Assembly (NCBI RefSeq): GCF_007748075.1
Contig: NZ_CP036280.1
Span: 1,560,001 to 1,592,000 of the forward strand
DNA from: Mucisphaera calidilacus
GTDB lineage: Bacteria; Planctomycetota; Phycisphaerae; Phycisphaerales; Phycisphaeraceae
Reading direction: 5' to 3'
Length of the DNA stretch: 32,000 nucleotides
Shown here: positions 1 through 32,000 of the stretch, in pieces
Layout: each line of letters starts with the position of its first letter
Position numbering within the stretch: the stretch's first letter is position 1
Notes under the pieces: generated by a model
The model's input: the letters and a program-made list of their open reading frames with translations, nothing else
The model's database searches: none
What the model was told of the DNA's origin: nothing
Made by a program: the position numbers and the translations under genes

Positions 1-1
1 G

Positions 2-226
2 ACGCGTTACGGTGCGTTGCCGGCGCAGATGGCTCATATCTGCGCGAGCAACATGGCGTTCTTTGATCTGGCGGCGACGGCGGTGGTTGAGGGTTCCCGG
101 GAGGCGGCGACGCACGCGTTGATGCTGGACCCGCTGACGCAGGCGGTCTGCACGCCTGGGGAAATCAAGTCCATGTCGGATGAGATGTTTGATGCAGAAT
201 CGGAGTACCTGGGGCATTATGCTTAG
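2..226 (+). CDS. C-terminal fragment of a glycoside hydrolase family 4-like enzyme (NAD/Mn-dependent alpha-glycosidase type); 5' end outside window
   Basis: Frame 2 is open from the window edge to TAG 224-226; the TTG at 17 is only the ORF caller's first start. The tail ...THALMLDPLTQAVCTPGEIKSMSDEMF... resembles the conserved LDPLT C-terminus of GH4 enzymes (by eye). G/T wobble bias matches other + genes. Confidence 0.4.
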   Translation, partial: TRYGALPAQMAHICASNMAFFDLAATAVVEGSREAATHALMLDPLTQAVCTPGEIKSMSDEMFDAESEYLGHYA

Positions 227-262
227 CGGCGTGATGGTTCGTGTCTTCGTGTCCAGGTTGCC

Positions 263-1906
263 ATGAAGTATCTATTCGGCTCGATATTTGCGGCGCTGGT
301 TGTGGCGAGTTTTGTGATCCGCGCGACGTTCCCGGACACGGCGACGCGTGTGCCGGTGCTGTACTGGGTGACGGACCCGGCACCGGCGCGTGTGGAGCAG
401 GTGAATCGGTTCCATCAGTGGCTGATCGAGACCGGGCGGTACACGGAGGATGTGATTGCGGATGAGGCGGGTCTGGCTCGTTTTCGGCGTGAGGTTCCGG
501 AGGCGTTGATTGATGACATCATCGTGACGCAGCCGGCGTTGGCGGGTGTTCTGGGGGATGAGCCTGACCTGTCGGTGTTGCCTGTGACGGTGCGGGTTCC
601 GGCGTGCGAGATGCGTCTGGACACGGCGAACCGTGATGACACGAAGCAGAAGGTTCAGGCGGTGTCGGGTGTGGCGGCGGACGTGATGGACGTGTTCAAC
701 GGTTCGAGCATGCGGATGTTCGCGGCGATGGGGGTTCTGCGTGACGTGACGGAGGATGCGGAGCGTCTGGGTTTCGGGTTGTCGGAGACGTATGCGGCGC
801 TTCGTCCTGAGGTGATTGTTGACGGTCGTCAGTACATGTACCCGTGCAATGTGTCGTCGTCGTATTACACGGTGAACAACGACCTGTTTCGTTCGCTGGG
901 GATGGAGCCACCGCCTCGTCGCTGGACGTTTGATGAGTTTGAGCGGATCGGTATTGCGTTCTGCGAGCGTGCGAATGAGGGCAAGCGTCGTCGGGACACG
1001 TTCTTTCTGAACAAGATCGACTGGACGCGGATGCATCGGGGGTTGGGGGTGTCTCGTTTCAACGAGACGATGACGGCGTGTGTGCTGGACTGCGCGGGAT
1101 ATGCGGAGGGGATGGAGCGTGGCAAGCGTTGGATGTATGAGATCAATATCATCCCGACGCCTGACGATGTGGATGCGTTTGCGTCGGCGCGGACGTATGG
1201 GGGGGCGGACCCGGCGATGTTCGGCGCGGGCCATTTCGGCATGATCGAGGGTGGTCGGTACTGGCTGATGCAGTTCCGGGAGTTTGATGAGTTGGGGGAG
1301 TTGGGGTTTGCGGAGCCGCCTCACGGGGGTTTTCCGAACACGACGATCGGGACGCGTGGGGCGCTGGTTTACAAGGGGACGCGTTACCCTGAGCTGGCGA
1401 CGTTGTTTCTGGCTTACCTGGCGAGCGAGAAGTACAACAATCTGATTGTTGAGGATTCGGATGCGTTGCCGCCTAACCCGGTGTACGCGCAGAGCGAGGC
1501 GTATCTTCGTCCGGCGGATCATCCGAACGAGTGGCTGATACACGGCCCGGCGTTCGAGATTGCGCAGACGATTGCGATCGGTGACGAGTACAGCCCGTTC
1601 GTGCTGCCGACGGTGGTGGAGGCGGAGATCAACTATCACCGTGATCGCTTTATTACGGGTCAGAGCACGGCGGCGGAGGCGGCGCGGAACACGGCGTCTG
1701 CGATCAACCAGGAGATCGCGAAGCGGTTGGGTCGTGAGCCGCGGCTGGTGCCTGAGTATGAGGAGCGTGTCGAGCGTCAGGCGCGGATTGATGCGTTGAA
1801 GGCGTCGGGGGAGCCGATTCCGGCGTCGTGGATTGATAACCCGTTTCTCAAGGCGTATTACAGGCATCTGGGTATGACGCGTGACGATGACGGGGGTGGG
1901 CTGTGA
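263..1906 (+). CDS. Extracellular solute-binding protein of a carbohydrate ABC importer (family 1 SBP-like), membrane-anchored
   Basis: ATG at 263. N-terminal hydrophobic anchor MKYLFGSIFAALVVASFVIRA. First gene of an SBP-permease-permease arrangement, with its stop overlapping the next start (GTGA 1903-1906). Family assignment is by eye and context only. Confidence 0.55.
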   Translation: MKYLFGSIFAALVVASFVIRATFPDTATRVPVLYWVTDPAPARVEQVNRFHQWLIETGRYTEDVIADEAGLARFRREVPEALIDDIIVTQPALAGVLGDEPDLSVLPVTVRVPACEMRLDTANRDDTKQKVQAVSGVAADVMDVFNGSSMRMFAAMGVLRDVTEDAERLGFGLSETYAALRPEVIVDGRQYMYPCNVSSSYYTVNNDLFRSLGMEPPPRRWTFDEFERIGIAFCERANEGKRRRDTFFLNKIDWTRMHRGLGVSRFNETMTACVLDCAGYAEGMERGKRWMYEINIIPTPDDVDAFASARTYGGADPAMFGAGHFGMIEGGRYWLMQFREFDELGELGFAEPPHGGFPNTTIGTRGALVYKGTRYPELATLFLAYLASEKYNNLIVEDSDALPPNPVYAQSEAYLRPADHPNEWLIHGPAFEIAQTIAIGDEYSPFVLPTVVEAEINYHRDRFITGQSTAAEAARNTASAINQEIAKRLGREPRLVPEYEERVERQARIDALKASGEPIPASWIDNPFLKAYYRHLGMTRDDDGGGL

Positions 1907-3399
1907 GTCGCAAGGTGAAGGATTTCGCGGCGGGGGTTGCGTTTCTGGCGCCGAACATCGCGGGCGTGCTGGTGTTCACGGTGTTCCCGGTGGTGGTGAG
2001 TCTGGTGATGGCGTTCAGCAACTGGGATCTGACGCTTCACAACGCGTACAAGACGGACGCGGAGCTTGAGTTTGTCGGTCTGAACAATGTGTATGAGATG
2101 TTTCAGGTGGGTGATCGTTTCGCGTGGGACAGCAAGTTCATCATCTTCTTCGGGAACACGCTGTTTTTCATGATGGGGATTCCGTTCTGCGTGCTGGCTT
2201 CGCTGTTCGCGGCGATCATGCTGAGCAAGGACACGCGTGCGGGTGGCGGTCGTCTGGGGCTGTATCTGTTGGCGGGGTGCGGGTTGACGGTGGGCTGCGT
2301 GATGCTGGCGGCGGCGGGCGCGGGTGCTTCGGCGATGATGCTGACGCTGCTGGGTGTGGCGGGCGTGATTCTGCTGGGTGGTGCGGGTCTGGGTTCGACG
2401 TTCTACCGGACGCTTTTTTACACGCCTTCGTTCGTGGCGGGTGTGGCGACGTTTCTGGTCTGGAAGAAGCTCTACTCGCGTGAGACGGGTCCTGTGAACC
2501 AGGCGTTGAATCCGGTGCTGGATGGTGTTGCGGACACGGTGAATGCGTTGCCTGCGGGGTTGATCGAGTCGCTGCTGTACGCGGGGTATGTGCTGTTCGT
2601 GGTGGTGCTGGCGTGGGGTCTGCGTCAGCTTCGGCGCGCGTACCTTGATGGCGACCTGGGCTGGCGTGCTGCGGTGCTGCCGGTGGTGCTGTTGTTTGTG
2701 CCGTTGCTGGTGGCGTCGCGGTGGAGCTATACGTCGGGGACGTGGTGGGTGTTGGGCGTGTTGTCGTTGGGCGTAGTGTTGTACGAGGCTTACCGGGTGG
2801 TGTCGACGGGTCGTTTCCCGGGTCGTGCGTCGGCGGGGTTTGGTCACGGGTTTGTGATGGCATTGATTGCGTTGGTGGGTCAGTTCGTGGTGCTGGGGCT
2901 GGCGGTGGTGGTGCACGTTCTGCCGTCGATGGCTGCGGATGGTCTGAACCCGCCTAGCTGGCTGAATAACGTGAACTTTGCGAAGCCGGCGTTGATGGTG
3001 ATGGGGTTCTGGGCGGCGATTGGTTCGAACAACATGCTGCTTTATCTGGCGGCGTTGACGAACATCCCGGAGGACCTTTATGAGGCGGCGGACATTGACG
3101 GGGCGTCGCGACTGGATCGGTTCTGGAACGTGACGTGGCCGCAGCTGGCGCCGACGACGTTTTTCATTCTGGTGATGTCGACGATCGGCGGGTTACAGGG
3201 TGGTTTTGAGATGGCGCGTGTTATGACGAACGGTGGTCCGGCGGGTGCGACGACGACGTTGAGTTTTTATATCTACGACCTCGGGTTCATCACGGGTCGG
3301 CTGGGTCTGGCTTCGGCGGTGTCGTGGGTTTTGTTTGTGCTGGTGTTCTGCGTGACGTTGTTCAACTGGAATTTCGGGAACCGTTATGTCAACGACTGA
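1903..3399 (+). CDS. Carbohydrate ABC transporter permease (MalF/CUT1-type), unusually long at 498 aa
   Basis: GTG start overlaps the upstream TGA. Many hydrophobic helices. EAA-loop motif YEAADIDGASRLDRFWNVTWPQLAP. Confidence 0.85.
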   Translation: MSRKVKDFAAGVAFLAPNIAGVLVFTVFPVVVSLVMAFSNWDLTLHNAYKTDAELEFVGLNNVYEMFQVGDRFAWDSKFIIFFGNTLFFMMGIPFCVLASLFAAIMLSKDTRAGGGRLGLYLLAGCGLTVGCVMLAAAGAGASAMMLTLLGVAGVILLGGAGLGSTFYRTLFYTPSFVAGVATFLVWKKLYSRETGPVNQALNPVLDGVADTVNALPAGLIESLLYAGYVLFVVVLAWGLRQLRRAYLDGDLGWRAAVLPVVLLFVPLLVASRWSYTSGTWWVLGVLSLGVVLYEAYRVVSTGRFPGRASAGFGHGFVMALIALVGQFVVLGLAVVVHVLPSMAADGLNPPSWLNNVNFAKPALMVMGFWAAIGSNNMLLYLAALTNIPEDLYEAADIDGASRLDRFWNVTWPQLAPTTFFILVMSTIGGLQGGFEMARVMTNGGPAGATTTLSFYIYDLGFITGRLGLASAVSWVLFVLVFCVTLFNWNFGNRYVND

Positions 3400-4255
3400 T
3401 CCCGTGCTGTCGCCTACGAAGCGTGCTGCCGAGCGCCGGAAGCTCTGGGGCACGTTCGGCCTGAATCTATTGCTGAGCGCGTTGGCGTTTACGCTGGCGT
3501 TGCCTTTTGTGTGGATGGTTCTGACGTCGCTGAAGCACGTTGAGGAGGTGGGGTTGCCGAGCTGGCTGCCGGGCGAGGAGGGTTTGCAGTGGGGGAATTA
3601 CGCTGAGGTATTCGAGCGTGTTCCTTTTGCGCGTTACTACGCGAACAGTCTGTTCGTGGCGTGCTGGGTGACGTTTTTGCAGGTGTTCACGTCGTCGCTG
3701 GCGGCGTTTGCGTTCGCGCGGATCAAGTGGCCGGGTCGTGACGCTGTGTTTCTGTTGTATCTCGCGACGATGATGCTGCCCGGTCTGGTGATGATGATTC
3801 CGAATTACCAGATCATGATTTCGCTGGGTCTGGTGGACACGCTGGCGGGTTTGATCATTCCGGCGTCGTTCACGGCGTTCGGGACGTTTTTGCTGCGACA
3901 GTTCATGCTGTCGATCCCGCCTTCGCTGGACGAGGCTGCGGAGATTGACGGTGCGTCGCGTTGGCAGGTTTACTGGGAGATCATCATGCCGCTGGCGCGT
4001 CCGGGGTTGGTGACGCTTGCGATCTTCACGTTCATGGGTAATTACAACTCGTTTTTCTGGCCGCTGGTGATGCTGAAGAGTCAGCACAAGTTCACGCTGC
4101 CGATCGGTCTGTTGAGCTTCGACACGACGGCGGGTCAGTCGACGCACCTGATGATGGCAGCGGTTACGATGGCGGTTGTGCCGATGATCGTTGTGTTTGT
4201 GGTTCTTCAGAAGCAGCTTGTGCGTGGCATTCAGCTTGGAGCCGTCAAGGGTTAA
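3386..4255 (+). CDS. Carbohydrate ABC transporter permease (MalG/CUT1-type)
   Basis: ATG 3386 overlaps the upstream gene by 14 nt. EAA loop LDEAAEIDGASRWQVYWEIIMPLARPG. About 6 hydrophobic helices. Confidence 0.9.
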   Translation: MSTTDPVLSPTKRAAERRKLWGTFGLNLLLSALAFTLALPFVWMVLTSLKHVEEVGLPSWLPGEEGLQWGNYAEVFERVPFARYYANSLFVACWVTFLQVFTSSLAAFAFARIKWPGRDAVFLLYLATMMLPGLVMMIPNYQIMISLGLVDTLAGLIIPASFTAFGTFLLRQFMLSIPPSLDEAAEIDGASRWQVYWEIIMPLARPGLVTLAIFTFMGNYNSFFWPLVMLKSQHKFTLPIGLLSFDTTAGQSTHLMMAAVTMAVVPMIVVFVVLQKQLVRGIQLGAVKG

Positions 4256-4267: not shown

Positions 4268-5416
4268 ATGTCGGACCGCCCTGCCGTTGTTGTTGCGGGT
4301 CATATCTGCCTGGATATCATTCCGCGGTTTCTTCATGGTGACGGTTCGCTGAAGCCTGGCGCGTTGACGGAGGTTGGGCCTGCGGTGACGGCGACGGGTG
4401 GCGCGGTGGCGAACAGCGGTCTGGCGTTGCATCGGCTGGGTGTGCCGACGGCGTTGCTGAGCAAGCTGGGAGATGACCCGTTTGCGCAGCGTGTGCTGGA
4501 CATTCTCAATGGTTACAGCCCGTCGCTGACGCGATCGATGGAGCGGAAGGCGGGTGAGACGACGAGTTACACGGTGGTGATCTCGCCGCCTGGGGTGGAT
4601 CGTTATTTTCTGCATTGTCCGGGTGCGAACAACACGTTCGGTCTTGATGACGTTCCGGAGCGTGCGTTGGCGGGAGCGCGTCTGCTGCACTTTGGTTATC
4701 CGCCGCTGATGCGTCACCTTCAGGTTGATGGTGGCACGGCGATGCGCGGGATTTTCGAGCGTGCGCATGGTGCGGGTCTGGTGACGTCGCTGGACATGGC
4801 GGCGATCGATCCGGAGGCGGAATCGGGGCGCGTGGACTGGGTGGCGTGGCTCGAGCGTGTGTTGCCGGAGGTGGATTTCTTCGTGCCGAGTTTTGACGAG
4901 GTCAGCTTCATGCTGGATGGTTCGGTGTCCGAATTGTCGGCGGATCGTCTGAGCGATTTAGGTGACCGGCTGGTGAAGCTGGGTGCCGGTGCGGTGCTGA
5001 TCAAGCTGGGTCATCACGGGCTGTACCTGCGGACGAGCGGTGATGCGTCGCGGTTTGCGCGTGCCGCGGAGGTGCTGGGTGTGGATGCTGAGGCGTGGGC
5101 GGGGCGCGAGTTGTCGGTGCCTTGTTTCACGGTGGAGGTTGTGGGGACGACGGGTGCGGGAGACTGCACGATCGCGGGTTTTCTGTCGGGTTTGCTGCGT
5201 GGCGAGACGCCTGAGGGCGCGTTGACGAGTGCGGTTGCGGTGGGTTCGTGCAGCGTGGAGTCGGCGGATGCGGTCAGCGCGGTGCCGGCGTGGTCAGACG
5301 TGGCGAAGCGTCTGGAGGCTGGCTGGGCGACGGACCCGCTGATGGATCTGCCGGGGTGGTCGGTGGTTGGCGAGACGACGGTGGTGGGTTCGGCGCGGGA
5401 TCAGCGTTTGTCGTAG
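4268..5416 (+). CDS. PfkB-family carbohydrate kinase (ribokinase/fructokinase-like)
   Basis: ATG 4268, 12 nt after the permease stop. C-terminal PfkB signature VVGTTGAGDCTIAGFLSGLL. N-terminal VVAGHICLDIIP beta-strand typical of the fold. Confidence 0.85.
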   Translation: MSDRPAVVVAGHICLDIIPRFLHGDGSLKPGALTEVGPAVTATGGAVANSGLALHRLGVPTALLSKLGDDPFAQRVLDILNGYSPSLTRSMERKAGETTSYTVVISPPGVDRYFLHCPGANNTFGLDDVPERALAGARLLHFGYPPLMRHLQVDGGTAMRGIFERAHGAGLVTSLDMAAIDPEAESGRVDWVAWLERVLPEVDFFVPSFDEVSFMLDGSVSELSADRLSDLGDRLVKLGAGAVLIKLGHHGLYLRTSGDASRFARAAEVLGVDAEAWAGRELSVPCFTVEVVGTTGAGDCTIAGFLSGLLRGETPEGALTSAVAVGSCSVESADAVSAVPAWSDVAKRLEAGWATDPLMDLPGWSVVGETTVVGSARDQRLS

Positions 5417-6201
5417 ATGACGGGGCACTTGTCGTGGTCGTCGATGAACTGCGTGAGGATGCGTTCGTGGTCGGGGTTGAGGGTGCTTTTTTCGGTTCGG
5501 AGGTGGATGGCGAAGCTTTTGCGGGGTGATCCGCTGGTGTTGATGCCGCTGCCGTGGAGGGTGTGCCGGTGGTGGAAGCTGACGCCGCCGGGCTTGAGGA
5601 TGGAGGGTACTTCTTCCCAAGCGATGCCCTGGGGGAGCTGGATGCTGTTCTTGAGTTTGTCGAGGTCGTTGGAGAAGAAGTCGCCGCCTGCGAAGAGTCC
5701 GTCGCGGTGTGAGCCGGGGACGAAGGCCATGGGGCCGGCCTGTGGTGTGACGTCGCTGATGGCGACCCATGCGGTGAAGAGTTCGCTGTCGGGTGTCCAT
5801 TCGGGCCAGTACTGAGCGTCCTGGTGCCATCCGACGGCGGGTCCGCCTGCGTTGGCAGGGTCGACGGAGGGTTTGTGGAGGAGCTGGACCCACCAGACCT
5901 GGATCATCTTGGCGCCGGTGACGCGTGCGGCGAGTTCGCCGAGTGCGGGGTGTGCGATGCAGGCGTGGATGTCGGGGTCGGCGAGGTTGGGCATCTCGAT
6001 CTTGCAGAGTTTGGTGTCGTCGTCGCCTGGCTTCCAGGGTGATTCGAAGGGTTCGTTGCCTGAGGCGTATTCGCCTCGGCGCACGGCCTCCATGCCATGT
6101 TCGGCGGCGTGGACGGTGTCGGCCGGGATGACCGGCTGGTCCGCGATGTAGTAGCCCCGCTGAGCGTAGAACTCAGCGACGTTGGTGTCGCTCTTGAGCA
6201 T
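5401..6201 (-). CDS. Phytanoyl-CoA dioxygenase (PhyH)-family Fe(II)/2-oxoglutarate-dependent oxygenase
   Basis: ATG (cat 6199-6201), TGA at 5401. WHQDAQYWP, FVPGSH and HHRHTLHGSGIN motifs fit the PhyH facial triad and Arg region. Last gene of the minus-strand hydrolase operon. Confidence 0.75.
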   Translation of the reverse strand: MLKSDTNVAEFYAQRGYYIADQPVIPADTVHAAEHGMEAVRRGEYASGNEPFESPWKPGDDDTKLCKIEMPNLADPDIHACIAHPALGELAARVTGAKMIQVWWVQLLHKPSVDPANAGGPAVGWHQDAQYWPEWTPDSELFTAWVAISDVTPQAGPMAFVPGSHRDGLFAGGDFFSNDLDKLKNSIQLPQGIAWEEVPSILKPGGVSFHHRHTLHGSGINTSGSPRKSFAIHLRTEKSTLNPDHERILTQFIDDHDKCPVIYDKR

Positions 6202-6258: not shown

Positions 6259-7395
6259 TCAGATAATCTCGAGTGCGTCGCGTTCCGGGAGTTTCGGGAA
6301 CGTGACGGTTGGCAGTGTCTGGTACCAGTAGGCGACGGAGGCGAGGTCGTCCTGGAGTGGGAGGTAGTGGAGGGGCTGGCGTTTGCGCCAGCCGAGCGCC
6401 TGTATGGTGACGGTGAGGTCCTGCTCGAAGCGAACGGGGTCGGGCAGGTGCCATCGGTAGAGGCCGAAGCGTTGCTGGCTGTCGTAGACGCCGTCGGGCC
6501 GTATGACCTGGGGCATGCCGGCGTAGGGCGTGGAGAATTCCTGGTACTGCTTGGTGTGGGGGTTTTCGAAGTTGTAGGAGCCGAGGAAGTAGTCTTCGGT
6601 GCCGGTTCCGCAGATGGTGGGGAAGGCGTCGCCGCCGTGCTCGGCGACGTCGTTGTCGACGGTCTGGCCGGGTTTGAGGTCGCCGTCGATGTAGAATTTG
6701 ATCTCGCCCTCGCCCCACCAGCCGGCGTTGTTGACGCCCCAGGCCATGTAGGTGCCGACGTATTGTCCGCGGCCTTTAATACCTTCGACGAGGGTGTATA
6801 CCTTGCCGTAGGGTTGTGGGTTGACGCGTCGGAACTGAGCGTGGAAGTAGGCTGCGTCGTCGGGGACGTCGTTGAGTGCGTAGTCGATCTGGTAGTAGAG
6901 GTAGGCGGGTTCGGTGCCGACGTTTTCGACGGTGATGCGGCAGTTTTTTCGGAAGGGCATGGGCCAGTAGCAGTTGAGGGCGCTGCCGGGGTTGACGGTG
7001 ACGGGTATGGAGTTGACCTGTGCGTATTGGCCCCATCCGCAGGCGAAGAAATCGCCCAGGGGGCATTCGACGCTGGGCTGTTCCTGTCCGTCCCAGTAGA
7101 TGCGGAGGATGAGGAATCGCCAGGCACCGGTGGGTGTCATCCAGAAGTGCTGGAGCGCGCCGGGTCCGTCGATGTCGGCGATGTTGGCGGTGGTTTCGGG
7201 TTGGATCTCGATAGCGGGGTTGATTTTCCATCCGCGTCCGAGGTCTTTAGCGCGGTCGGCGCTGATGCCTTGGGTGGCGCGTCCGCCGCCGGCCTTGGCG
7301 CCGTCGAGGTTTTCGGCGCTGATGGATCTTGTTTTGGCGCGTGAGAGTCGGTGTGCGGAGCTGAGGTCACAGAAGAGGCCGTCGAACTCAGGCAT
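6259..7395 (-). CDS. DUF2961 / glycoside hydrolase family 172 protein, cytoplasmic (no signal peptide)
   Basis: ATG (cat 7393-7395) with GGAG about 8 nt upstream. N-terminal ...RSISAENLDGAKAGGG...GWKINPAIEI...IADIDGPGALQHFWMT... matches the conserved DUF2961 N-terminal pattern as I remember it. Confidence 0.75.
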   Translation of the reverse strand: MPEFDGLFCDLSSAHRLSRAKTRSISAENLDGAKAGGGRATQGISADRAKDLGRGWKINPAIEIQPETTANIADIDGPGALQHFWMTPTGAWRFLILRIYWDGQEQPSVECPLGDFFACGWGQYAQVNSIPVTVNPGSALNCYWPMPFRKNCRITVENVGTEPAYLYYQIDYALNDVPDDAAYFHAQFRRVNPQPYGKVYTLVEGIKGRGQYVGTYMAWGVNNAGWWGEGEIKFYIDGDLKPGQTVDNDVAEHGGDAFPTICGTGTEDYFLGSYNFENPHTKQYQEFSTPYAGMPQVIRPDGVYDSQQRFGLYRWHLPDPVRFEQDLTVTIQALGWRKRQPLHYLPLQDDLASVAYWYQTLPTVTFPKLPERDALEII

Positions 7396-8838: not shown

Positions 8839-8841
8839 CGT

Positions 8842-13451: not shown

Positions 13452-13525
13452 GGGCGGATTCCAGGAGAGGGGACGAAGCGTTATGGGATCACGATCCGAC
13501 AAGCGTATCTACAGAGATGTACTCA

Positions 13526-16709: not shown

Positions 16710-19149
<2,440 letters not shown>

Positions 19150-19150
<1 letters not shown>

Positions 19151-23130: not shown

Positions 23131-24066
23131 TCAGGCTGCGTTGGCGCTGAGCAGGTGCTTGTTCTGGAGGAGTAGGGTCTGTACGGCGTCTCGCTGGCTG
23201 GCGGGTCCGATGATCACGAGTTGGGAATCGGGGTTTTCGGTGTTGGCGGGCTTCCATCGGACGCGGTCGGCGGCGATGTCGACGAAGAGGTGCTGGTTGT
23301 CGAGTAAGACAAAGCCCTTGGCGCGGTAGATGTGGTTGCGGAGGGTGTTGAGGAAGGCGTTGAGTTCATCCCGCGAGCGTGCGGGGTTGACGTGGATGAT
23401 CCAGCGTTCGTAGTTGGTGTCGGCGCAGGTGGCGTACTCGCCTTCGACGGAGGTGTGTGTTGTGTCGGGCTTTTGGAACGGGTTGATGTCGGTATTGCCG
23501 AAGCTGGCGCGGCGGATATCGAGGCTGGGGTTGATCTCGTGCAGCAGGGCGTGGGTCTGGTCGATCTGATCGGCGGGGTGCTGATCGATCATGGTGATGA
23601 TGGCGGTGTGGGAGGCGGCGATCTGTGCGCGTGTGTTGGGGAGTGTCTTGAGGAGTGTGTTGAGTTTGTCGGGTGCGACGAGGCAGATGGTGTGGGCGAG
23701 GTTGAAGTGCCGGTCGAGCTGGGTTTCGTGGAGCATGCGTTGCGCGACGGAGGGGTCGGCGATACCGCTTGCTTCGACGATGACGCCTTCGAGGGGGCTT
23801 GAGTTGTGCGTGTGCGCGAGGGTGTTCATGACCTCGCGGAACCGAGTGACGAGGCAGGTGCAGAAGATGGATCCGCCGGGGACGGTGACGGCGTTGGGGG
23901 CGTCGGCGAGGAGTCGGCCGTCGATGTCGTGCTGAGAGAACTCGTTGACGACGTAGGCGAGGCGTCGTTCGGCGTGTTTGCGCGCGATAGCGCGCAGGAA
24001 GGTGGTCTTGCCGCTGCCGAGAAACCCGGTGACGAGCGTGAGCGGGATGGTGCCTTGGTCTGTCAT
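23131..24066 (-). CDS. COG0523 / CobW-family G3E P-loop GTPase (metallochaperone-like)
   Basis: Preferred ATG 24066, 7 nt after the upstream stop. The longer ORF to 24171 would overlap the upstream gene and add a Pro/Ser-rich extension. Walker A LVTGFLGSGKTTFL. The metal-motif region reads GGSIFCTCLV. CobW C-terminal-like domain present. Confidence 0.85.
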   Translation of the reverse strand: MTDQGTIPLTLVTGFLGSGKTTFLRAIARKHAERRLAYVVNEFSQHDIDGRLLADAPNAVTVPGGSIFCTCLVTRFREVMNTLAHTHNSSPLEGVIVEASGIADPSVAQRMLHETQLDRHFNLAHTICLVAPDKLNTLLKTLPNTRAQIAASHTAIITMIDQHPADQIDQTHALLHEINPSLDIRRASFGNTDINPFQKPDTTHTSVEGEYATCADTNYERWIIHVNPARSRDELNAFLNTLRNHIYRAKGFVLLDNQHLFVDIAADRVRWKPANTENPDSQLVIIGPASQRDAVQTLLLQNKHLLSANAA

Positions 24067-24073
24067 TCGGCGT

Positions 24074-25488: not shown

Positions 25489-26118
25489 TCAGGCGTTGAT
25501 GAGGGTGCGGACGGTGTCGACGGCGGAGGCGGCGTCGGGTGCGAAGCCGTTGGCGCCGACTTCGTCGGCGAAGGCCTGGGTGACGGGTGCGCCGCCGATA
25601 ATGACGCTGACGCCTTCGAGTCTGGCCTCGTTGATGGCGTCGATGGTCTTTTTCATGGCGGGCATGGTGGTGGTGAGGAGTGCGGAGAGGCCGACGACGG
25701 TGGCTCCGGATTCCTTGACGGCTTCGACGAATTTTTCGGGGGACACGTTGGTGCCGAGGTCGATGACCTGGAAGCTGGCTCCCTTGAGCATCATGACGAC
25801 GAGGTTCTTGCCGATGTCGTGGAGGTCGCCCTCGACGGTTCCGACGACGGCGGTGGCGAGTGGCTTGTAGCCGGCCTCGACGAGTTTGGGCTCCAGGATG
25901 GCCATGGCTTCTTTCATGGCGCGTGCGGCGATGAGGACTTCGGGGACAAAGATCTGGTTGGCTTTGAAGCGCTGCCCGACGTCGTCCATGCCCTCGATGA
26001 GTGCTTCGAGGATGGTGTTGGGGGAGGTGCCGGCGGCGAGTTCGGTCTCGGTGGAGGCGGTGGCGAGCTTGCGGTCACCCTTTTTGATGGCTTCGGTGAG
26101 GTCGTTGAGTGCGGACAT
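25489..26118 (-). CDS. Corrinoid (cobalamin)-binding protein, MtaC/MtbC-like (B12-binding_2 cap plus B12-binding Rossmann domain)
   Basis: ATG 26118 preceded by AAGGAG; 209 aa. His-on motif VEGDLHDIGKNLV (DxHxxG), downstream GLSALLTTT (SxL) and VIIGGAP (GG). First gene of the minus-strand operon. Confidence 0.95.
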   Translation of the reverse strand: MSALNDLTEAIKKGDRKLATASTETELAAGTSPNTILEALIEGMDDVGQRFKANQIFVPEVLIAARAMKEAMAILEPKLVEAGYKPLATAVVGTVEGDLHDIGKNLVVMMLKGASFQVIDLGTNVSPEKFVEAVKESGATVVGLSALLTTTMPAMKKTIDAINEARLEGVSVIIGGAPVTQAFADEVGANGFAPDAASAVDTVRTLINA

Positions 26119-26364
26119 CGTTGCTCCTTGGCCTTGTGTGGCGCTTGTGTCAGGGGTCTGTGCGTGGCGTCGATTGTACGCGGATCAAGAGACTCACGCG
26201 TCTGTGGTTCGGTAGTATTGTGTACGAAATTGGCGTTTTCAAGAGGTATTTGACATTTATTCTGATAATTACAGTGTTATACTCTGAGGCAGGTGTATCC
26301 CGCCGGTTGTTTTTCGTTCGTGCTGGTTTGTTCGTTGATCAGGAATGACGCCTTGGATGGCAAG
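26119..26364. promoter_or_regulatory. Divergent control region between the corrinoid-protein operon (-) and DUF1638/RACo (+)
   Basis: 246-nt gap with an AT-rich core at about 26221-26290. TTGACA (26250-26255) and TATACT (26278-26283) are present but 22 nt apart, so no canonical promoter is asserted. Confidence 0.4.
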
Positions 26365-27117
26365 ATGCGACATGAGGTGGCGGCGCCGGGCGGGGTTTGG
26401 GTGATCACGTGCGCGGTTCTGGAGCTTGAGGTCGAGGCGATGCTGCGTGACCGGGCTGACGTCGTGGGTGTGACCCGGCTGCCGCAGGGTCTGCACAACG
26501 AGCCGGATCGTCTTCGCGAAGAGCTGCAACTGCGTATCGATGAGGCGGAGACGTGCGCTGGGTGCGGGGTGATCGTTCTGGTTTATGGGTTGTGCAGTCG
26601 GGGTACGGAGGGTTTGCGGACGCGTCGGTGTCGTCTGGTGATCCCGCGTGCGCACGACTGCATCACGCTGCTGCTGGGGTCGAAGGAGCGTTACGCGGCT
26701 TATGTGTCGGAGCACCCGGGGACGTACTGGTATTCGCCGGGGTGGAACGCGCATCATGTTCCGCCCGGGCCGAAGCGGTATGAGCTTCTGCGTCGGGAGT
26801 ATGTCGAGAAGTATGGCGAGGACAACGCGGACTTTCTGATGGAGATGGAGCAGGGTTGGTTCAAGGAGTACAACCGTGCGACATACGTGCACCTGAGTAT
26901 CGGGGCGACGGACGAGGATCGGGCCGAGACGCGTCGCTGTGCGGACTGGCTTGAATGGACGTATGACGAGGTGGCGGGTGATCCGGGGTTGATGGAGGCG
27001 TTGTTGTCGGGCGCGTGGGATGAGGAGCGTTTTCTGGTGCTGGAGCCTGGCGAGGCGTTTGTGATGACGGCGGACGAGCGTGTGATTGAGCGTGTGAAGG
27101 GGGAGGCTTCGTCGTGA
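26365..27117 (+). CDS. DUF1638-family protein (function unknown, recurrently linked to corrinoid methyltransferase genes)
   Basis: Preferred ATG 26365; the upstream 24 codons from 26293 lie in the AT-rich intergenic region. VLELEVEAM, GLHNEPDRLREELQ, VLVYGLCSRG and IPRAHDCITLLLGSKERY resemble DUF1638 conserved blocks (by eye). The stop overlaps the next start (GTGA). Confidence 0.65.
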   Translation: MRHEVAAPGGVWVITCAVLELEVEAMLRDRADVVGVTRLPQGLHNEPDRLREELQLRIDEAETCAGCGVIVLVYGLCSRGTEGLRTRRCRLVIPRAHDCITLLLGSKERYAAYVSEHPGTYWYSPGWNAHHVPPGPKRYELLRREYVEKYGEDNADFLMEMEQGWFKEYNRATYVHLSIGATDEDRAETRRCADWLEWTYDEVAGDPGLMEALLSGAWDEERFLVLEPGEAFVMTADERVIERVKGEASS

Positions 27118-28694
27118 GTGAGGGGTGTCGTCTTCGGGTTGTGGCGGAGGGGGTGGACGATGTGGTGATCGATGTGGGGCGTGATGCGCTGGGCGAGAGT
27201 GTGGCGGAGATTCTGTACGGAGCGGGTTTGGGGTTGAACACGCGTTGCGGGCGGCGGGGCGTGTGTGACGGGTGTTTCGTCGAGGAGCTTGGCCGCGAGC
27301 GTGTGGAGCGTCGGCGTGCGTGTGCGTGGCGTCTGGAGGCCGGCGAGGCGGTGATTCGGATTCCGCGTCGGAGTCGTGCGTCGCATCGGCCGCAGGTGCT
27401 GGAGCATTTTGATCTTCGGGTGCCTTATGCGCATGACCCGCTGGCGGATGAGGGCGTGGGGATTGCGGTTGATCTGGGAACGACGACGGTTGCGGTGGTG
27501 GTGGTTGATCTTGCGGACGGGCGTGTGCTGGCGCGTCGGAGCCGGTTCAACGGGCAGATTGAGCTGGGTGATGACGTGCTGAGTCGGATCAATCTGTGCG
27601 GTCGTGGCGCGGGGCAGTTGGTGTTGCTACAGAAGGCGGTGGTGGCGGGGACCTTGCGGCCGCTGATTCTTGAGGCCCTGGGAGAAGCCGGGGTAGAGCT
27701 GCGTGATCTGGGCTGCGTGACGGTAGCGGGGAACACGACGATGCTGCACCTGCTGGTGGGTGAGGATCCGACGCCGATGGGTGCGGTGCCTTTTACACCT
27801 GGGTTTGTGGAGCACCGCGTGGTGACGGCGGGGGAACTGGGGTTGGCGTTGCCGGGGTGTGGTGATCTGCCGGTGCACCTGCTGCCGTCGGTGAGTGCGT
27901 ACGTGGGTGCGGATGTGCTGGGGGGCGTGTTGTCGACGGGTCTGGCGTATGAGGCGGGTGCTTCGCTGCTGGTGGACGTGGGGACGAACGGCGAGATGGT
28001 GCTGGTTCATGAGGGGAAGATGACGGCTTGTGCGACGGCGGCGGGCCCGGCGTTTGAGGGTTCGGGGTTGTCGCACGGGATGCGGGCGGCGCGGGGGGCG
28101 ATTGAGCGGGTTGATCTGGAGCGCGAGCCGTTCGGGGTGGCGTGCGGGACGATCGGCGATGCGGAGGCGGAGGGGTTGTGCGGGACGGCTTATCTGGATC
28201 TGCTGGCGCAGGGGCGTGCCGTGGGGTTGTTCAACGAGCGGGGTCGGTTTGCGGATCCGCTGCCGGCGGGTGCCGAGTCGTGGATGGTTGATCACGAGGG
28301 TGTGCGTGGTCTGGCGGTGGCGGAGGGTGTGGTGGTGACGGAGGTGGACGTGGCCTTGTTGCTGCAGGCGAAGGGCGCGATCGCGGCGGGGATTCTGACG
28401 CTGCTGGAGCTTGCGGGCGTGTCGGCGTGTGATGTGGGGCGTGTTTATCTGGCGGGTGGGTTCGGGATGTCGTTACGGGTGGAGCATGCGATCGCGATGG
28501 GTTTGCTGCCCGGATTCAGGGTGGATCAGGTTTCGCTCGCGGGGAACAGCTCGCTGGCCAGTGCGTATCTGGCGTTGGTGGATCGGTCGTCGCTGGAGGA
28601 GTTGGAGCGGTTGCGCGGTGAGGTTGAGAGCATCGAGTTGAATCAGGTGGCGTCGTTTGAGGATCACTACATTGATTGTTTGTCGCTGGGTTAG
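27114..28694 (+). CDS. RACo-type ATP-dependent reductive activator of corrinoid proteins ([2Fe-2S] ferredoxin domain plus ASKHA ATPase domain, DUF4445)
   Basis: GTG 27114 with GGGGGAGG 8 nt upstream, overlapping the DUF1638 stop. Cys cluster CGRRGVCDGC...ACAW. ASKHA motifs GIAVDLGTTTVAV, LLVDVGTNGEMVL, AAGPAFEGSG and YLAGGFG. Confidence 0.9.
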   Translation: MSEGCRLRVVAEGVDDVVIDVGRDALGESVAEILYGAGLGLNTRCGRRGVCDGCFVEELGRERVERRRACAWRLEAGEAVIRIPRRSRASHRPQVLEHFDLRVPYAHDPLADEGVGIAVDLGTTTVAVVVVDLADGRVLARRSRFNGQIELGDDVLSRINLCGRGAGQLVLLQKAVVAGTLRPLILEALGEAGVELRDLGCVTVAGNTTMLHLLVGEDPTPMGAVPFTPGFVEHRVVTAGELGLALPGCGDLPVHLLPSVSAYVGADVLGGVLSTGLAYEAGASLLVDVGTNGEMVLVHEGKMTACATAAGPAFEGSGLSHGMRAARGAIERVDLEREPFGVACGTIGDAEAEGLCGTAYLDLLAQGRAVGLFNERGRFADPLPAGAESWMVDHEGVRGLAVAEGVVVTEVDVALLLQAKGAIAAGILTLLELAGVSACDVGRVYLAGGFGMSLRVEHAIAMGLLPGFRVDQVSLAGNSSLASAYLALVDRSSLEELERLRGEVESIELNQVASFEDHYIDCLSLG

Positions 28695-29356
28695 TGCAGG
28701 CAGCGGCGTGTCAGTGCCGCGAGGCCGAGTGTGAAGATTCCGATGCTGAGGGGTTCGGGGATGATGGTAGTGACGGTGAAGGTGCCGGGTTCGATGGTGG
28801 TGTCGAGGGCTGCGATGCCGTCGAGGGTGAGTGTGAATTCGCCAACGAGCAGGTCGTCCGCGAGGGTGAAGATGGTGGTCTGGTCTTCGAGATTGCCGGC
28901 CTGGATGATGAGCGAGCCGATGTAGACGTCGCGGCGGGCGCCGATGGGTTGCGGGGTTTCGGTGCCGAGGACGCCGAGTGGCTCGAAGGGGTCCTGGAAG
29001 AGGACGGTTCGGAGTTGATCGGGTGTGAGGGTGACGATGGGGCCGAGGGGGTCGTTGAAGTCGAGGTCGTTGGTGTTGAAGGCGGTCATGGTGGCGGGGT
29101 CGGTGTCGGCGGAGGTGGCGTCGACCCTGACGTCGAGGGAGATCAGGCCGTTCTCGGCGATGAGCGTCGAGATGGCGAGGTCGGGGATGTCTTCCTGGAG
29201 AAAGAGGTCGACGATGACGGTTTCGCCGACGAGGACTTCGTAGGCCGGCTCGGCGGCGACGAAGCGGAAGACGCCGGCATGGGCGGTGGTGCTCGCGGAG
29301 GCGAGTGCGAGCGCCGCGAGGATCAGCGTTGAGCAGAGTATGTTGTGGGTACGCAT
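28691..29356 (-). CDS. PEP-CTERM-anchored secreted protein, possibly with a cohesin-like beta-sandwich
   Basis: Preferred ATG 29356 (GGAGA 6 nt upstream). Signal peptide MRTHNILCSTLILAALALASASTTAHA. PEP-CTERM tail IPEPLSIGIFTLGLAALTRRCLH. The cohesin-like pattern (VLVGETVIVDLFL..., GLISLDVRVD..., VYIGSLIIQAGN..., GTFTVT) is judged by eye only. Confidence 0.6.
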   Translation of the reverse strand: MRTHNILCSTLILAALALASASTTAHAGVFRFVAAEPAYEVLVGETVIVDLFLQEDIPDLAISTLIAENGLISLDVRVDATSADTDPATMTAFNTNDLDFNDPLGPIVTLTPDQLRTVLFQDPFEPLGVLGTETPQPIGARRDVYIGSLIIQAGNLEDQTTIFTLADDLLVGEFTLTLDGIAALDTTIEPGTFTVTTIIPEPLSIGIFTLGLAALTRRCLH

Positions 29357-29421
29357 GGGATTCTCCAACTCCTCATCGGCCGGCCCTGAGCGGGGATGGT
29401 GGCCGTGTCGGTCTTGGTCAT

Positions 29422-32000
29422 TCAGGAACGCTGCTGCACCTCGTTGCGAGCGAGGCTGTAATCGTTGGCGTCGATGTCGCCATCGGCGTCGAGGTCGAGA
29501 TAGGCAATATATCCGGCGTCGCCTTCGAGGCTGCCGAGTGCGGTCCGGTAGAGCCGCAGGTCGATGGCCTCGACGGTGGTGTTGCCGTCGGTGTCACCGG
29601 GCAGGCTGATGATGTCGCCCTGTCCCTGCTGGCCGTCGTTGTTGCCGTCGGTGTCGCTGAGCAGGACGCCCTTGGTGGTGGCGATGACCATGGTGTCTAT
29701 GCGGAGTTCGAATCCGTTTTCGGATCCGAGTCCGACGAGGTCGGGGTCGATGCGGTCGGAGCCGCCGATGCCGTCGTCGGTGAGGTCGACGCGGAGCGTT
29801 CGTGTGACGGCGTCCCAGCTGTAGTCGCTGGCGTCGAGGACGTTGAGGATCAGCTGGTTGGTGTCGGCGTCGAAGAGTCGGACGGCGTCGACGATGGAGC
29901 CGTCGTTGATGAGTGACTGGAACTCCATGGGTGTGTTGAAGGTGACGGCGATGGAGGTGATGGTGGACCGCTGTGCCGCGCCGTCGTTGAGTTCGACGCT
30001 GGTAACGACGGGTTGGTCGCCGGCCTTGATCCATGAGGTCTGGAAGACGGTTTCGCCGAGGTTCCCGAAGAGGTCGGTGATGCCGTCGCCGTCGAGCGAG
30101 AGGACGTAGGTGCCGTCGTCTGCGGTGAGGTTGGTGAGTCCCTCGATGCGGTAGCGTGTGGTGGTGAGCCGTGTGAGTGTGGTGGAGCTGAGGTCGATGT
30201 CGTTGTTGTTGCGTGTGAGGTTGAGATCGTCGAGGTCGAGGGTGCCTTCGGCGAGTGGCTCGGAGACCGAGAAGGTGACGCTGTTGACCGGGCTGATGCG
30301 GTGATCGGGTGTGACGGTATCGAAGGTGACTACGGGTCCGTCGCCATCGATCGGCTCGTAGATGAGGGTGTAGGAGGTGCCGGTGTCTTCGGGGTCGCCC
30401 GTGGCTTCGGGTCGTGAGTCGAAGACGTGGATGATGTCTTCGTAGATGGGGAGCTGGTTGACGCCCGGGAAGGTTCGGTCCGTCTGCCAGAAGTTGTTGT
30501 CGAGCAGGGAGGATCCGTCCTGTCGCTGGACGTCGATGAGTCGGTAGCGTCCTCGGCCGGGGTCGTCGAAGCGGAAGTAGCCGTGGCCGTCGAAGGATTC
30601 GACGGTGACGGTGGTGGTGAGGTCGTTGAGGGTGACGTCGGCACCGATGTTGGTGACGACGAGGTCGCTGACGGGCTCGATGGAGCCGTCGGACTGGTGG
30701 ACCTCGTCGGGTATGAACTGCGGGTCTTCGGTGGCGTTGACGAGGAAGTCGGGCAGGTCGTCGGAGCCTTCGAGGTCGACCTGGACGGTGCGGATGGTTT
30801 CGTGGATGCGGACGTCCTTGACCTCGCCGAGTCGCTCGTCGCCGAGGGCGTTGACGTTTCGGAAGGAGGCGGAGAAGTCGACGAAGTGTCCCTGGATGGT
30901 GGATTCGAGGAACCAGAGGACGGTGACGATCTCGCCGGGCTCGATGTCGCCGAACTCGAGGTTGAAGGCGGGTGTGATGTTCTGGTTGTTGATCTGGCTG
31001 GCGAGGAGTGTGAAGTCGATCAGCAGGCCCTGTGCGTTGTCGATGATGCGCGGCTGGGCGGAGCTGAGCGTGACCTGGTTGGCGGTGCCGACGCCCTCGT
31101 TGCGGATGTAGACGCCGAGGTTGTAGGGCACGCTGGGTTCGATTTCCTGGGTGAACGGGTCGTCGGAGTAGACGTCGCGTTGGTGGTAGTAGTCGATGAA
31201 GAGCTGTGCTCGTGGCTCGACGGTGATGGTGACGGGAGTGAAGTCGCTGGTGACGAGTTGTCCGTTGTCGACGTAGCTGAGGGTTCCGCCCACGGAGTAG
31301 CCGGTGAGGCCCTCGGGGGCTGCCTCGTCGAGGGGCACGATGATCCAGGTGGAGGATCCTTCGGCGTTGGGTCCGATGAACCCGGTGCCGTCGACGGCGC
31401 TGATGCCGTCGAGGTCGGGTGCGGAGATGGCGAAGAGGTCGTTGGCGATGTTGCCCTGCGCGTCGAGGATCTTGATGTCGACGTCGATGTCGGAGAGCGG
31501 GTTGTCGGTGTCGTTGAAGAGGTCGAGTGTGGCGTCGAAGGCCTGGAGAGTGGTGGTCAGGTCCTGGCTGAGTTGCAGGGTGACGTTGGCCGAGACGAAC
31601 TCGGGCAGCTTGACGACGGGCTGTGGCGCGGGTGCGCGGAAGACGGGGATGACGGGTCCTGTGCCGCCGCCGCCGAAGCCGCCTCCGCCGCCAAAGCCGC
31701 CACCACCACCTCCTCCGCCGCCGCCGCCGGAGCGTGGGATGACGCTCGGGGGCAGGAAGCAGTTGCCGTCGACGTTGGTGATGTAGATCGGCGTGGTCTT
31801 GTTGACGGTGATGAGGCTGCCGGGAGCGCCGGTCTGGTAGGACCAGTTGACGCCTGCGCTAATATCACAGGCGATGAAGATGCCCGGGTCTTCGAGCACG
31901 GCGGTGCGGGTGACGATCACGGGGATGGTGACGTCGCTGGAGCCGGGCAGGGTGCCGAGGGTGTCGGTGAGGGGTGTGAACTCGTAGAAGGGGTGGTCTT
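29422..32000 (-). CDS. Very large secreted surface protein (N-terminus outside window): poly-Gly linker, CARDB/Ig-like beta-sandwich repeats, C-terminal dockerin-type repeats
   Basis: The frame stays open upstream of the caller's GTG at 31920 to the window edge (…DHPFYEFTPLTDTLGTLPGSSDVTIP-VIVTRT…). TGA at 29422. C-terminus GDTDGNTTVEAIDLRLY...DLDADGDIDANDYSLARN (two Ca-binding dockerin loops). No PEP-CTERM tail. Confidence 0.8.
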   Translation of the reverse strand, partial: DHPFYEFTPLTDTLGTLPGSSDVTIPVIVTRTAVLEDPGIFIACDISAGVNWSYQTGAPGSLITVNKTTPIYITNVDGNCFLPPSVIPRSGGGGGGGGGGGFGGGGGFGGGGTGPVIPVFRAPAPQPVVKLPEFVSANVTLQLSQDLTTTLQAFDATLDLFNDTDNPLSDIDVDIKILDAQGNIANDLFAISAPDLDGISAVDGTGFIGPNAEGSSTWIIVPLDEAAPEGLTGYSVGGTLSYVDNGQLVTSDFTPVTITVEPRAQLFIDYYHQRDVYSDDPFTQEIEPSVPYNLGVYIRNEGVGTANQVTLSSAQPRIIDNAQGLLIDFTLLASQINNQNITPAFNLEFGDIEPGEIVTVLWFLESTIQGHFVDFSASFRNVNALGDERLGEVKDVRIHETIRTVQVDLEGSDDLPDFLVNATEDPQFIPDEVHQSDGSIEPVSDLVVTNIGADVTLNDLTTTVTVESFDGHGYFRFDDPGRGRYRLIDVQRQDGSSLLDNNFWQTDRTFPGVNQLPIYEDIIHVFDSRPEATGDPEDTGTSYTLIYEPIDGDGPVVTFDTVTPDHRISPVNSVTFSVSEPLAEGTLDLDDLNLTRNNNDIDLSSTTLTRLTTTRYRIEGLTNLTADDGTYVLSLDGDGITDLFGNLGETVFQTSWIKAGDQPVVTSVELNDGAAQRSTITSIAVTFNTPMEFQSLINDGSIVDAVRLFDADTNQLILNVLDASDYSWDAVTRTLRVDLTDDGIGGSDRIDPDLVGLGSENGFELRIDTMVIATTKGVLLSDTDGNNDGQQGQGDIISLPGDTDGNTTVEAIDLRLYRTALGSLEGDAGYIAYLDLDADGDIDANDYSLARNEVQQRS
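31663..31728 (-). repeat. Low-complexity GGN codon run encoding G11-F-G5-F-G4
   Basis: Read directly: GGC GGC GGC GGC GGA GGA GGT GGT GGT GGC GGC TTT GGC GGC GGA GGC GGC TTC GGC GGC GGC GGC on the minus strand. Confidence 0.9.

Follow-up and report, generated by a model that had tools for sequence, protein, structure and literature searches.

Extreme strand asymmetry and strand-specific codon usage in a chromosomal segment of the free-living planctomycete Mucisphaera calidilacus

Introduction

What decides whether the codons of a bacterial gene end in G or T, or in C or A? This question is raised by a 32,000-nucleotide stretch of the chromosome of Mucisphaera calidilacus Pan265 (Planctomycetota, Phycisphaeraceae; NZ_CP036280.1, positions 1,560,001 to 1,592,000), hereafter called the window, in which the wobble base of a codon depends on the DNA strand and not on the gene. 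Why bacterial chromosomes show GC skew, the excess of G over C on one strand, (G-C)/(G+C), is debated because the usual effect is a few per cent. Pan265 is a free-living aerobic mesophile with an optimum of 30-33 C, obtained from biofilm of a shallow-sea hydrothermal system; the genome measures 3.49 Mb at 63.9% GC, and the paper describing it makes no mention of skew (PMC8882080). A culturable, free-living organism in which the effect is ten-fold larger makes the origin of skew experimentally tractable.

Wobble bases follow the DNA strand

On its plus strand the window contains 12844 G, 7268 C, 7203 T and 4685 A (GC 62.9%), which corresponds to a GC skew of +0.277, an AT skew of -0.212, a G+T content of 62.6% and k = 0.253, where k = (G-C+T-A)/N. 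By our own arithmetic, the imbalance between G and C over the whole window lies 39 standard deviations (SD) off parity. GC skew is above zero in 32 out of 32 one-kilobase windows (range 0.169 to 0.404), and no change of sign was seen within the 32 kb at this resolution. Four counts made by hand in an earlier, sequence-only reading of the stretch were all reproduced exactly: 27 of the first 30 codons of the gene for RACo (reductive activator of corrinoid protein) end in G or T, 25 of the first 30 codons of the corrinoid-protein gene end in C or A, and the plus strand holds G25 C10 T16 A9 at 9001-9060 and G29 C12 T14 A5 at 27481-27540. G exceeds C and T exceeds A over tens of kilobases whatever the orientation of the genes, which is strand asymmetry of the replication type.

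Genes were called by their codon-position GC pattern (GC content at position 3 above that at position 1, and position 1 above position 2; GC3>GC1>GC2) together with Pfam matches. This gave 24 genes, nine on the plus strand (11,280 bp of coding sequence) and 15 on the minus strand (19,344 bp). About 63% of the window's coding DNA sits on the C-rich strand, and the earlier estimate of about 19 kb there against about 11 kb on the G-rich strand was numerically right. Codons ending in G or T make up a fraction of 0.77-0.85 in each of the nine plus-strand genes and of 0.12-0.29 in each of the 15 minus-strand genes. These ranges are disjoint, as expected from the claim that wobble bases follow the DNA strand, and the chance of such a complete separation is 1/C(24,9) = 7.6e-7 (own arithmetic). 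The genes are listed below with this fraction and with the base counts at four-fold degenerate sites, which are counts on the gene strand.

263..1906, plus: ABC solute-binding protein gene; G/T-ending 0.81; four-fold G210 C13 T65 A4
1903..3399, plus: ABC permease gene; 0.80; G223 C17 T59 A3
3386..4255, plus: ABC permease gene; 0.79; G106 C12 T38 A6
4268..5416, plus: PfkB sugar kinase gene; 0.81; G164 C19 T58 A5
5401..6201, minus: PhyH dioxygenase gene; 0.17; G7 C97 T5 A21
6259..7395, minus: DUF2961/GH172 gene; 0.17; G10 C146 T7 A26
7414..8838, minus: 474-aa gene without Pfam match, whose orthologues have weak Glyco_hydro_cc and dockerin matches; 0.18; G17 C192 T11 A36
8842..11595, minus: GH38 alpha-mannosidase gene, whose product matches the M. 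calidilacus protein at 100% identity; 0.16; G25 C411 T14 A72
11595..13502, minus: GH39-like gene; 0.18; G17 C243 T14 A45
13526..14452, minus: gene with a prepilin-type N-terminal methylation motif, the least biased of all; 0.29; G14 C97 T21 A28
14536..15264, minus: 242-aa gene, whose orthologues have a weak PEP-CTERM match; 0.15; G7 C124 T10 A12
15389..16492, minus: regulator gene with a GntR helix-turn-helix and a periplasmic-binding-like domain; 0.19; G13 C169 T8 A27
16710..18566, plus: GxGYxYP putative glycosidase gene; 0.79; G229 C38 T68 A4
18563..19150, plus: D-lyxose isomerase-like gene; 0.77; G68 C10 T22 A2
19150..20418, plus: Amidohydrolase_2 gene; 0.81; G173 C16 T47 A6
20497..21711, minus: 404-aa gene, whose orthologues are named PEP-CTERM sorting domain proteins; 0.12; G12 C184 T7 A29
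22017..23117, minus: URO-D family (MtaA-like) methyltransferase gene; 0.19; G14 C143 T4 A17
23131..24171, minus: CobW-family GTPase gene; 0.20; G29 C130 T7 A26
24074..25468, minus: URO-D family methyltransferase gene; 0.15; G10 C197 T10 A37
25489..26118, minus: corrinoid (B12-binding) protein gene; 0.14; G3 C111 T1 A10
26293..27117, plus: DUF1638 gene; 0.79; G94 C16 T35 A2
27114..28694, plus: RACo gene; 0.85; G243 C28 T57 A8
28691..29368, minus: 225-aa gene without Pfam match; 0.16; G16 C109 T3 A11
29422..31920, minus: 832-aa gene with a C-terminal dockerin; 0.16; G44 C351 T11 A56

Pooled over the genes of each orientation and read on the gene strand, four-fold sites carry G.696, T.207, C.078 and A.018 in plus-strand genes, and G.067, T.038, C.766 and A.128 in minus-strand genes. 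Expressed in plus-strand terms, the two orientations together give G.731, T.168, C.072 and A.028, with a GC skew of +0.80 from the plus-strand genes and +0.84 from the minus-strand genes. From these two values, the skew resolves into a strand-dependent component of about 0.82 and a gene-dependent one of about -0.02; for T versus A at four-fold sites the strand component is about 0.69. The skew is greatest at these synonymous sites and weaker in intergenic DNA and at constrained codon positions, where gene-strand GC skew in plus- versus minus-strand genes is 0.27 vs 0.19 (position 1) and -0.05 vs -0.18 (position 2). At two-fold sites on the plus strand, G/A is 19-26, like that of any GC-rich genome, and C/T is just 1.1-1.3. 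The same division runs through single amino acids: threonine is encoded by ACG (.94) in plus-strand genes versus ACC (.77) in minus-strand genes, valine by GTG (.72) versus GTC (.89), and leucine by CTG (.62) and TTG (.25) versus CTC (.88), while the share of AAA among lysine codons is 0 versus.46 and that of GAA among glutamate codons.04 versus.61. Codon usage in the window separates by strand, in the manner of Borrelia.

Protein composition and orthologues on opposite strands

The bias is also seen in the encoded proteins. The ratio of amino-acid frequency in plus-strand genes to that in minus-strand genes is 1.33 for V, 1.16 for G, 1.20 for W and 1.46 for R, and 0.65 for T, 0.86 for P, 0.53 for Q, 0.57 for N and 0.65 for I. 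Overall, V, R, C, E, W, A and G are richer in the plus-strand genes of the window and Q, N, I, T, K, D and P in the minus-strand genes; the suggestion that composition might track orientation, with V, G and W on one side and T and P on the other, thus holds. As gene function is a possible confound here (the permeases all lie on the plus strand), we set single proteins against their own families. Among 119 homologues, RACo, encoded on the G-rich strand, is at or near the top for V, G and E and at or near the bottom for P, Q, T and I. On a keto-versus-amino codon index, only two proteins in a set of 120 score below the GH38 protein, whose gene lies on the C-rich strand.

RACo also allows orthologues on opposite strands to be compared, since the G-rich strand carries the gene in M. 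calidilacus and in a related Logan contig (L002), and the C-rich strand does so in Poriferisphaera. On the keto/amino index for 120 homologues, the maximum belongs to the protein P0001 (+4.7 SD) and the minimum to P0036 of Poriferisphaera (-3.85 SD), with the window protein at +3.8 SD, so that the composition of RACo takes the side of the strand that encodes it. Aligned replacements between G-rich-strand and C-rich-strand copies are almost entirely one-directional (forward/reverse): V:I 41/0, G:N 11/0, A:P 10/0, E:Q 9/0, D:N 9/0 and G:A 16/2. Three of these (A:P, E:Q and G:A) are pure G/C exchanges, which a difference in genome GC content cannot explain. The bias is positional and not intrinsic to the genes: orthologues acquire the bias of the strand that they occupy. 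Orthologues on opposite strands will consequently diverge artificially, and the identity of RACo to its Poriferisphaera counterpart is lowered in this way.

Occurrence of the skew in relatives

The closest comparison is provided by a 3.25-Mb contig of a Mucisphaera sp. (L005; ERZ26867466 ctg28227), which is syntenic with window positions 263-21711. Its overall skew at this locus is -0.307, its four-fold strand skew is -0.65 to -0.91 in 16 out of 16 genes, and its gene-to-strand relation is identical to that of the window. In L002, whose RACo is 70% identical, the overall skew is +0.29 and the four-fold skew about 0.8 except in three genes. A metagenome-assembled genome (MAG) of a Phycisphaeraceae member (GCA_040222855.1; L006-L008), sister to L005 by protein identity, has values of mostly 0.7 to 0.92 on either side of a low-skew island, with the exception of two left-flank genes (0.36 and 0.47) and one AT-rich gene near 0. 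The locus in Poriferisphaera sp. WC338 (L009; 4.24 Mb, CP194516.1 2,061,565-2,083,208, at 48.6-49.1% of the record) has a GC content of 52.8%, an overall skew of -0.30 and a four-fold strand skew of -0.5 to -0.9 in 15 out of 15 genes of both orientations. Its four-fold sites hold G.57 and C.11 with T and A about equal (.165/.176), in contrast to the six-fold excess of T over A in Mucisphaera; behind their shared G/C skew, the genera seem to differ in substitution spectrum.

Extreme skew was not found in six further loci (L001, L003, L004, L010, L013 and L014), which have at most ordinary skew; these include a Verrucomicrobia locus (L001), GCA_028277745.1 (L003) and GCA_030432595.1 (L010), the last with the same syntenic GH38 locus. 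Two lineages picked by protein composition as candidates for strong skew (P0160 and P0076) likewise have ordinary skew only. No skew was seen in the Phycisphaera mikurensis plasmid pPSMK1 or in 'Poriferisphaera phage ZRK32', neither of which is informative. A contig scan with RACo returned a single match (Oceanipulchritudo, 42%), a metagenome scan with an alignment of the window protein and P0001 returned one irrelevant 40% locus, and in the N-methyl and GntR families, paralogues within a lineage are at least as far apart as those across lineages. The trait belongs to a clade within the Phycisphaeraceae, the Mucisphaera/Poriferisphaera branch, and not to these genes. The window itself is ordinary chromosomal DNA, comprising sugar-utilisation genes and a corrinoid methyltransferase cluster, and its oddity is a property of the genome regime and not of a local element; a reading of the skew as a local island is rejected.

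The low-skew island of the MAG (JAVKCD010000025, about 334-360 kb; from about position 10,000 of L007 to about 16,000 of L006 and beyond) is the sugar locus orthologous to window 263-21711, where the bias of the syntenic orthologues is lost or reversed. Its left edge is sharp and coincides with a synteny break relative to the Mucisphaera sp.; beyond this edge, four-fold strand skew passes through +0.3, 0, -0.3 and -0.7 back to about -0.9 over some 25 kb, and four-fold GC is lowered too. The D-lyxose isomerase-like and GxGYxYP genes in the island have a reversed sign and a shifted amino-acid codon composition (keto fraction at positions 1+2 of.455-.469 vs.514-.552), and protein identity to L005 is uniform across it (73-89%). 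Candidate explanations are an earlier switch in the direction of replication, recombination with an allele of opposite orientation, and a local initiation site.

Single genes with weak or no skew at four-fold sites (GC4 -0.11 to 0.47) also occur amid strongly skewed sequence at 4415-7857 of L002 and 667-1500 of L008, one of them AT-rich (GC4 0.35). These are probably recent acquisitions in which amelioration is incomplete, and the skew of the clade could be used to date horizontal transfers.

Comparison with known systems

A strand asymmetry far above ordinary replication skew had been suspected from small samples, and the full counts confirm it. The typical G excess in SkewDB is about 2.5% per base, and that of the window is 17.4%. 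Measured as the orientation-independent G excess of a strand at four-fold sites (RG), the maximum among 352 chromosomes is 0.433 in Blochmannia floridanus, followed by 0.426 in Clostridium acetobutylicum and about 0.35 in Ehrlichia (Morton and Morton 2007, PMC2099444), with E. coli at 0.07. On the same measure the window reaches about 0.82 (and about 0.69 for the corresponding T excess, RT), roughly twice the survey record and about 11 times E. coli.

Two strand-defined codon groups, a G+T versus an A+C strand and amino acids that follow are also known from Borrelia burgdorferi and nine other bacteria (Treponema pallidum and members of Chlamydia, Buchnera, Blochmannia, Bartonella, Tropheryma and Lawsonia among them), which have chromosomes under 2 Mb, GC contents of 26-52% and k mostly from 0.035 to just above 0.1 (PMC2671203). 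On this basis, small size has been proposed as necessary for strand-specific codon usage and high GC as adverse to it (Guo and Yuan 2009; PMC2671203). These genomes are mostly host-associated and small, whereas Mucisphaera is a free-living aerobe whose size (3.49 Mb), GC content (63.9% for the genome, 62.9% for the window) and k (0.253) all lie outside the listed ranges; as the sequence-only reading had it, usage of the Borrelia type is not known at this strength in a high-GC genome, and the listed cases agree. In a survey of 4,012 replicons, Planctomycetota are among the low-skew, high-GC phyla.

In magnitude, the window resembles animal mitochondrial DNA (mtDNA), which likewise has G+T and A+C strands, a comparable asymmetry at four-fold sites and affected protein composition, although here the carrier is a 3.5-Mb bacterial chromosome. 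The asymmetry of mtDNA is attributed to deamination of long-exposed single-stranded DNA (ssDNA), and the vertebrate range of four-fold GC skew lies around 0.8. Its sign is constant over the whole molecule, its gradient is time-dependent, and C-to-T and A-to-G changes both take part. For Mucisphaera, the equilibrium model described below requires only a raised C-to-T rate, to which A-to-G may add. We found no published description of the trait in the literature on extreme GC skew, on Mucisphaera, Pan265 or CP036280, or on skew in Phycisphaerae. Replication-type asymmetry coupled to strand-specific codon usage is familiar as such; the trait of this small clade, with its magnitude and its large, GC-rich, free-living setting that was believed to preclude it, is apparently undescribed.

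A probable mechanism and its alternatives

We propose that the window probably reflects a lineage-specific, replication-linked mutational asymmetry dominated by the loss of cytosine on one strand. In the Mucisphaera/Poriferisphaera branch, the two strands would be under very unlike substitution pressures, one of them steadily losing cytosine, which would have brought its synonymous sites to roughly 73% G, 17% T, 7% C and 3% A. Genes on that strand would thereby have moved towards NNG/NNT codons and genes on its complement towards NNC/NNA codons, and the pressure would spill into codon positions 1 and 2, with V, G, R, E and A going up on the G-rich strand and I, T, N, Q, P and K on the other. 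Judging from what is known of bacterial skew and from deaminase experiments in E. coli, the asymmetry would be set by the direction of replication, and the G+T-rich strand would be the leading-strand sequence, that is, the lagging-strand template that is exposed as ssDNA. The primary lesion may be cytosine deamination that escapes repair, with C-to-T as its main outcome in Mucisphaera and C-to-G as that in Poriferisphaera, and G would become the sink via C-to-T followed by T-to-G.

This proposal is consistent with a four-state equilibrium model that takes an unskewed relative, GC-rich and strand-symmetric in composition, as its starting point and that is crude in treating transversion classes as equal and in assuming stationarity. 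Raising C-to-T alone about 30-fold on one strand yields A.04, C.075, G.75 and T.14 against the observed.028/.072/.731/.168, a distance of 0.035-0.047, and none of the other 11 single directed rates comes nearer than 0.10, or than 0.16 when base composition is fixed at that of the unskewed relative. For Poriferisphaera, a rise in C-to-G (x8-10) fits and C-to-T fails, because T is about equal to A at its four-fold sites. Both outcomes, C-to-T and C-to-G, are known to arise from one uracil lesion in APOBEC signatures. Experimentally, a cytosine deaminase combined with deletion of ung in E. coli raises GC skew and enriches G on the lagging-strand template (PMC6263442), and in work with APOBEC3G-CTD in ung-deficient E. 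coli it is the loss of C on the lagging-strand template that raises GC skew (Bhagwat 2016; Kono 2018). That effect is engineered and short-term, in contrast to the asymmetry of Mucisphaera, where a deaminase or repair defect is hypothetical. Klasson and Andersson tied strong skew to deamination of ssDNA, with long exposure at stalled forks (summarised in PMC2671203). Given the match to this account of deamination on an ssDNA lagging-strand template, the plus strand of the window would be leading-strand sequence. More tentatively, we suggest as one possibility that the clade gained an alteration of the replication fork through which exposed-strand cytosine mutates tens of times more readily than cytosine on the protected strand, with processing of the lesion differing by genus. 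Candidates for such a change are loss or rewiring of uracil or abasic (AP)-site repair, an endogenous activity that modifies cytosine in ssDNA, a very long-lived ssDNA lagging-strand template, and non-canonical replication.

Several points weigh against cytosine loss linked to replication. The sign flip expected at an origin or terminus was not seen, although the window and about 140 kb of related sequence include no replichore boundary at which it could show. There is no tRNA or Rfam match in the window and no tRNA in seven related loci, and the sequences covered hold no rRNA, tRNA or ribosomal-protein gene by which to orient the leading strand. Over independent skewed loci, the G-rich and C-rich strands carry nearly equal shares of the coding DNA (about 50:50, own tally), and this gives no independent support for the G-rich strand as leading. 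Pooled intergenic DNA (7.3 kb from six skewed loci) has a GC skew of only 0.23 and a TA skew of 0.14, about a quarter of the four-fold value, where the usual slope of intergenic against four-fold skew is 0.68. The spacers of the window, L002, L005, L007, L008 and L009 make up about 4% of the DNA, with 46-60% GC and GC skews of 0.14-0.34; their low skew probably means that such short spacers are almost wholly constrained, the other option being a coding-specific amplifier. That a single lesion is shared by Mucisphaera and Poriferisphaera is an assumption, and in a mesophile that grows best at 30-33 C, heat-accelerated deamination is not an available cause. Moreover, composition alone cannot separate the loss of C from one strand from the loss of G from the other, C-to-T on the first being equivalent to G-to-A on the second.

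This last point leads to an unlikely alternative, in which the asymmetry still follows replication direction and guanine on the C-rich strand is the damaged base, through G-to-A by alkylation and G-to-C by further-oxidised guanine. The Poriferisphaera pattern, with G far above C and T about equal to A, fits a G:C-to-C:G transversion, and such transversions are known from oxidised-guanine lesions. However, this scheme needs two guanine lesions in two genera, against one cytosine lesion with two processing routes, and the classic outcome of 8-oxoguanine (G-to-T, equivalent to C-to-A on the G-rich strand) fits poorly in the model. An exposed strand that loses G would also make the leading sequence C-rich, contrary to the rule in nearly all bacteria (PMC2099444).

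Two further alternatives appear improbable to us. One is replication of a non-canonical kind (strand-displacement or strongly unidirectional, as in mitochondria), with one sign or a gradient round most of the chromosome. It would account for a four-fold GC skew of vertebrate mtDNA and not bacterial size, for the lack of a flip at any locus, with all three loci of known record orientation negative, and for the absence of gene-strand bias. Three samples of one sign are nevertheless a 1 in 4 outcome by chance, the RACo clusters of the two genera lie on opposite skew strands, as expected from inversions between two replichores, and nothing else points to an unusual replication system, for which the prior is low. 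The other, which we also hold to be of low probability, is selection or biased repair acting on coding DNA, either as a preference for G-rich leading-strand sequence or as repair coupled to replication and to translation-relevant sites. The modest intergenic skew speaks for it, as does intergenic GC, which at 46-60% lies far under the 77-83% of four-fold sites, so that the latter are not simply at mutational equilibrium. Against this, translational selection is blind to the DNA strand and both codon sets are used in one cell; the weakly skewed, likely recent genes of L002 and L008 are as gradual mutational amelioration predicts; the protein changes go in directions that are unlikely to be adaptive; and the few spacers are largely functional.

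Skew driven by transcription or gene orientation, of the Firmicutes type, could account for a small gene-linked component (T above A by about 0.15 on coding strands, and a slight difference in GC3 between orientations) and is otherwise refuted by the same plus-strand sign and size in both orientations and by the predominance of coding DNA on the C-rich strand. A sequencing or assembly artefact (chemical C-to-T conversion or strand-biased error) is likewise refuted, as C+T amounts to 14,471 against 17,529 for G+A, which excludes simple C-to-T conversion, the bias is concentrated at synonymous sites with strong Pfam matches kept, and the same regime recurs in five independent assemblies from isolates and metagenomes.

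Consequences of the asymmetry

Published generalisations that make a small genome a requirement for strong strand bias, and that regard high GC as unfavourable to it, are contradicted by the window. Methods for codon usage, gene finding, binning, detection of horizontal gene transfer and phylogenetics will go wrong in this clade where they take a genome to have a single codon or amino-acid regime. At this strength, skew also preserves in fine detail how a region has been replicated and rearranged, and the graded island of the MAG is an example. If a change at the replication fork were indeed responsible, this would amount to strand asymmetry of mitochondrial grade in a free-living bacterium of 3.5-4.2 Mb.

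Shadow reading frames and other features of the window

The strand bias had also been offered as the cause of the many long antisense open reading frames (ORFs) of the window, and this explanation stands in part. The codon-aligned antisense frame contains 2.1 stops per 1000 codons opposite plus-strand genes, 7.9 opposite minus-strand genes and 3.5 in an unskewed GC-rich relative; the skew thus modulates the length of these ORFs, and their main cause is high GC3. Six long antisense ORFs gave no Pfam match. On the sense strand, the two off-frames of minus-strand genes are nearly stop-free (5.9 and 11.2 per 1000 codons), versus 40-43 for plus-strand genes, and same-strand shadow ORFs of 500-700 aa lie within real genes, for example at 8879-10963 (minus) and 11680-13182 (minus). 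These same-strand ORFs follow from the low stop density of a C+A-rich coding strand, so the skew alters which frames look open.

Some gene starts need adjustment. Called as longest ORFs, the CobW gene and the URO-D gene upstream of it overlap by 98 bp (24074-24171), and because the CobW Pfam match begins only at residue 43, the true CobW start is probably downstream of 24171. The 832-aa dockerin protein, called from the first GTG, carries a run of about 20 glycines, GGGGGGGGGGGFGGGGGFGGGG, near its N-terminus (about 31663-31728, minus), and its true start may differ from this call. In the GH38 protein (8842-11595), only the N-terminal and middle Pfam domains match at E<=1e-5, whereas orthologues with 70-71% identity also match Glyco_hydro_38C; the missing match may be due to compositional drift that affects profile detection.

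Finally, a set of genes for corrinoid-dependent methyl transfer (22017-28694; two URO-D/MtaA-like proteins, CobW, the B12-binding protein, DUF1638 and RACo) adjoins the glycan-utilisation locus in this aerobic heterotroph. Comparable corrinoid clusters with MtaB are present in L003 and L009, and the cluster may serve the demethylation of methylated sugars or methoxylated compounds.

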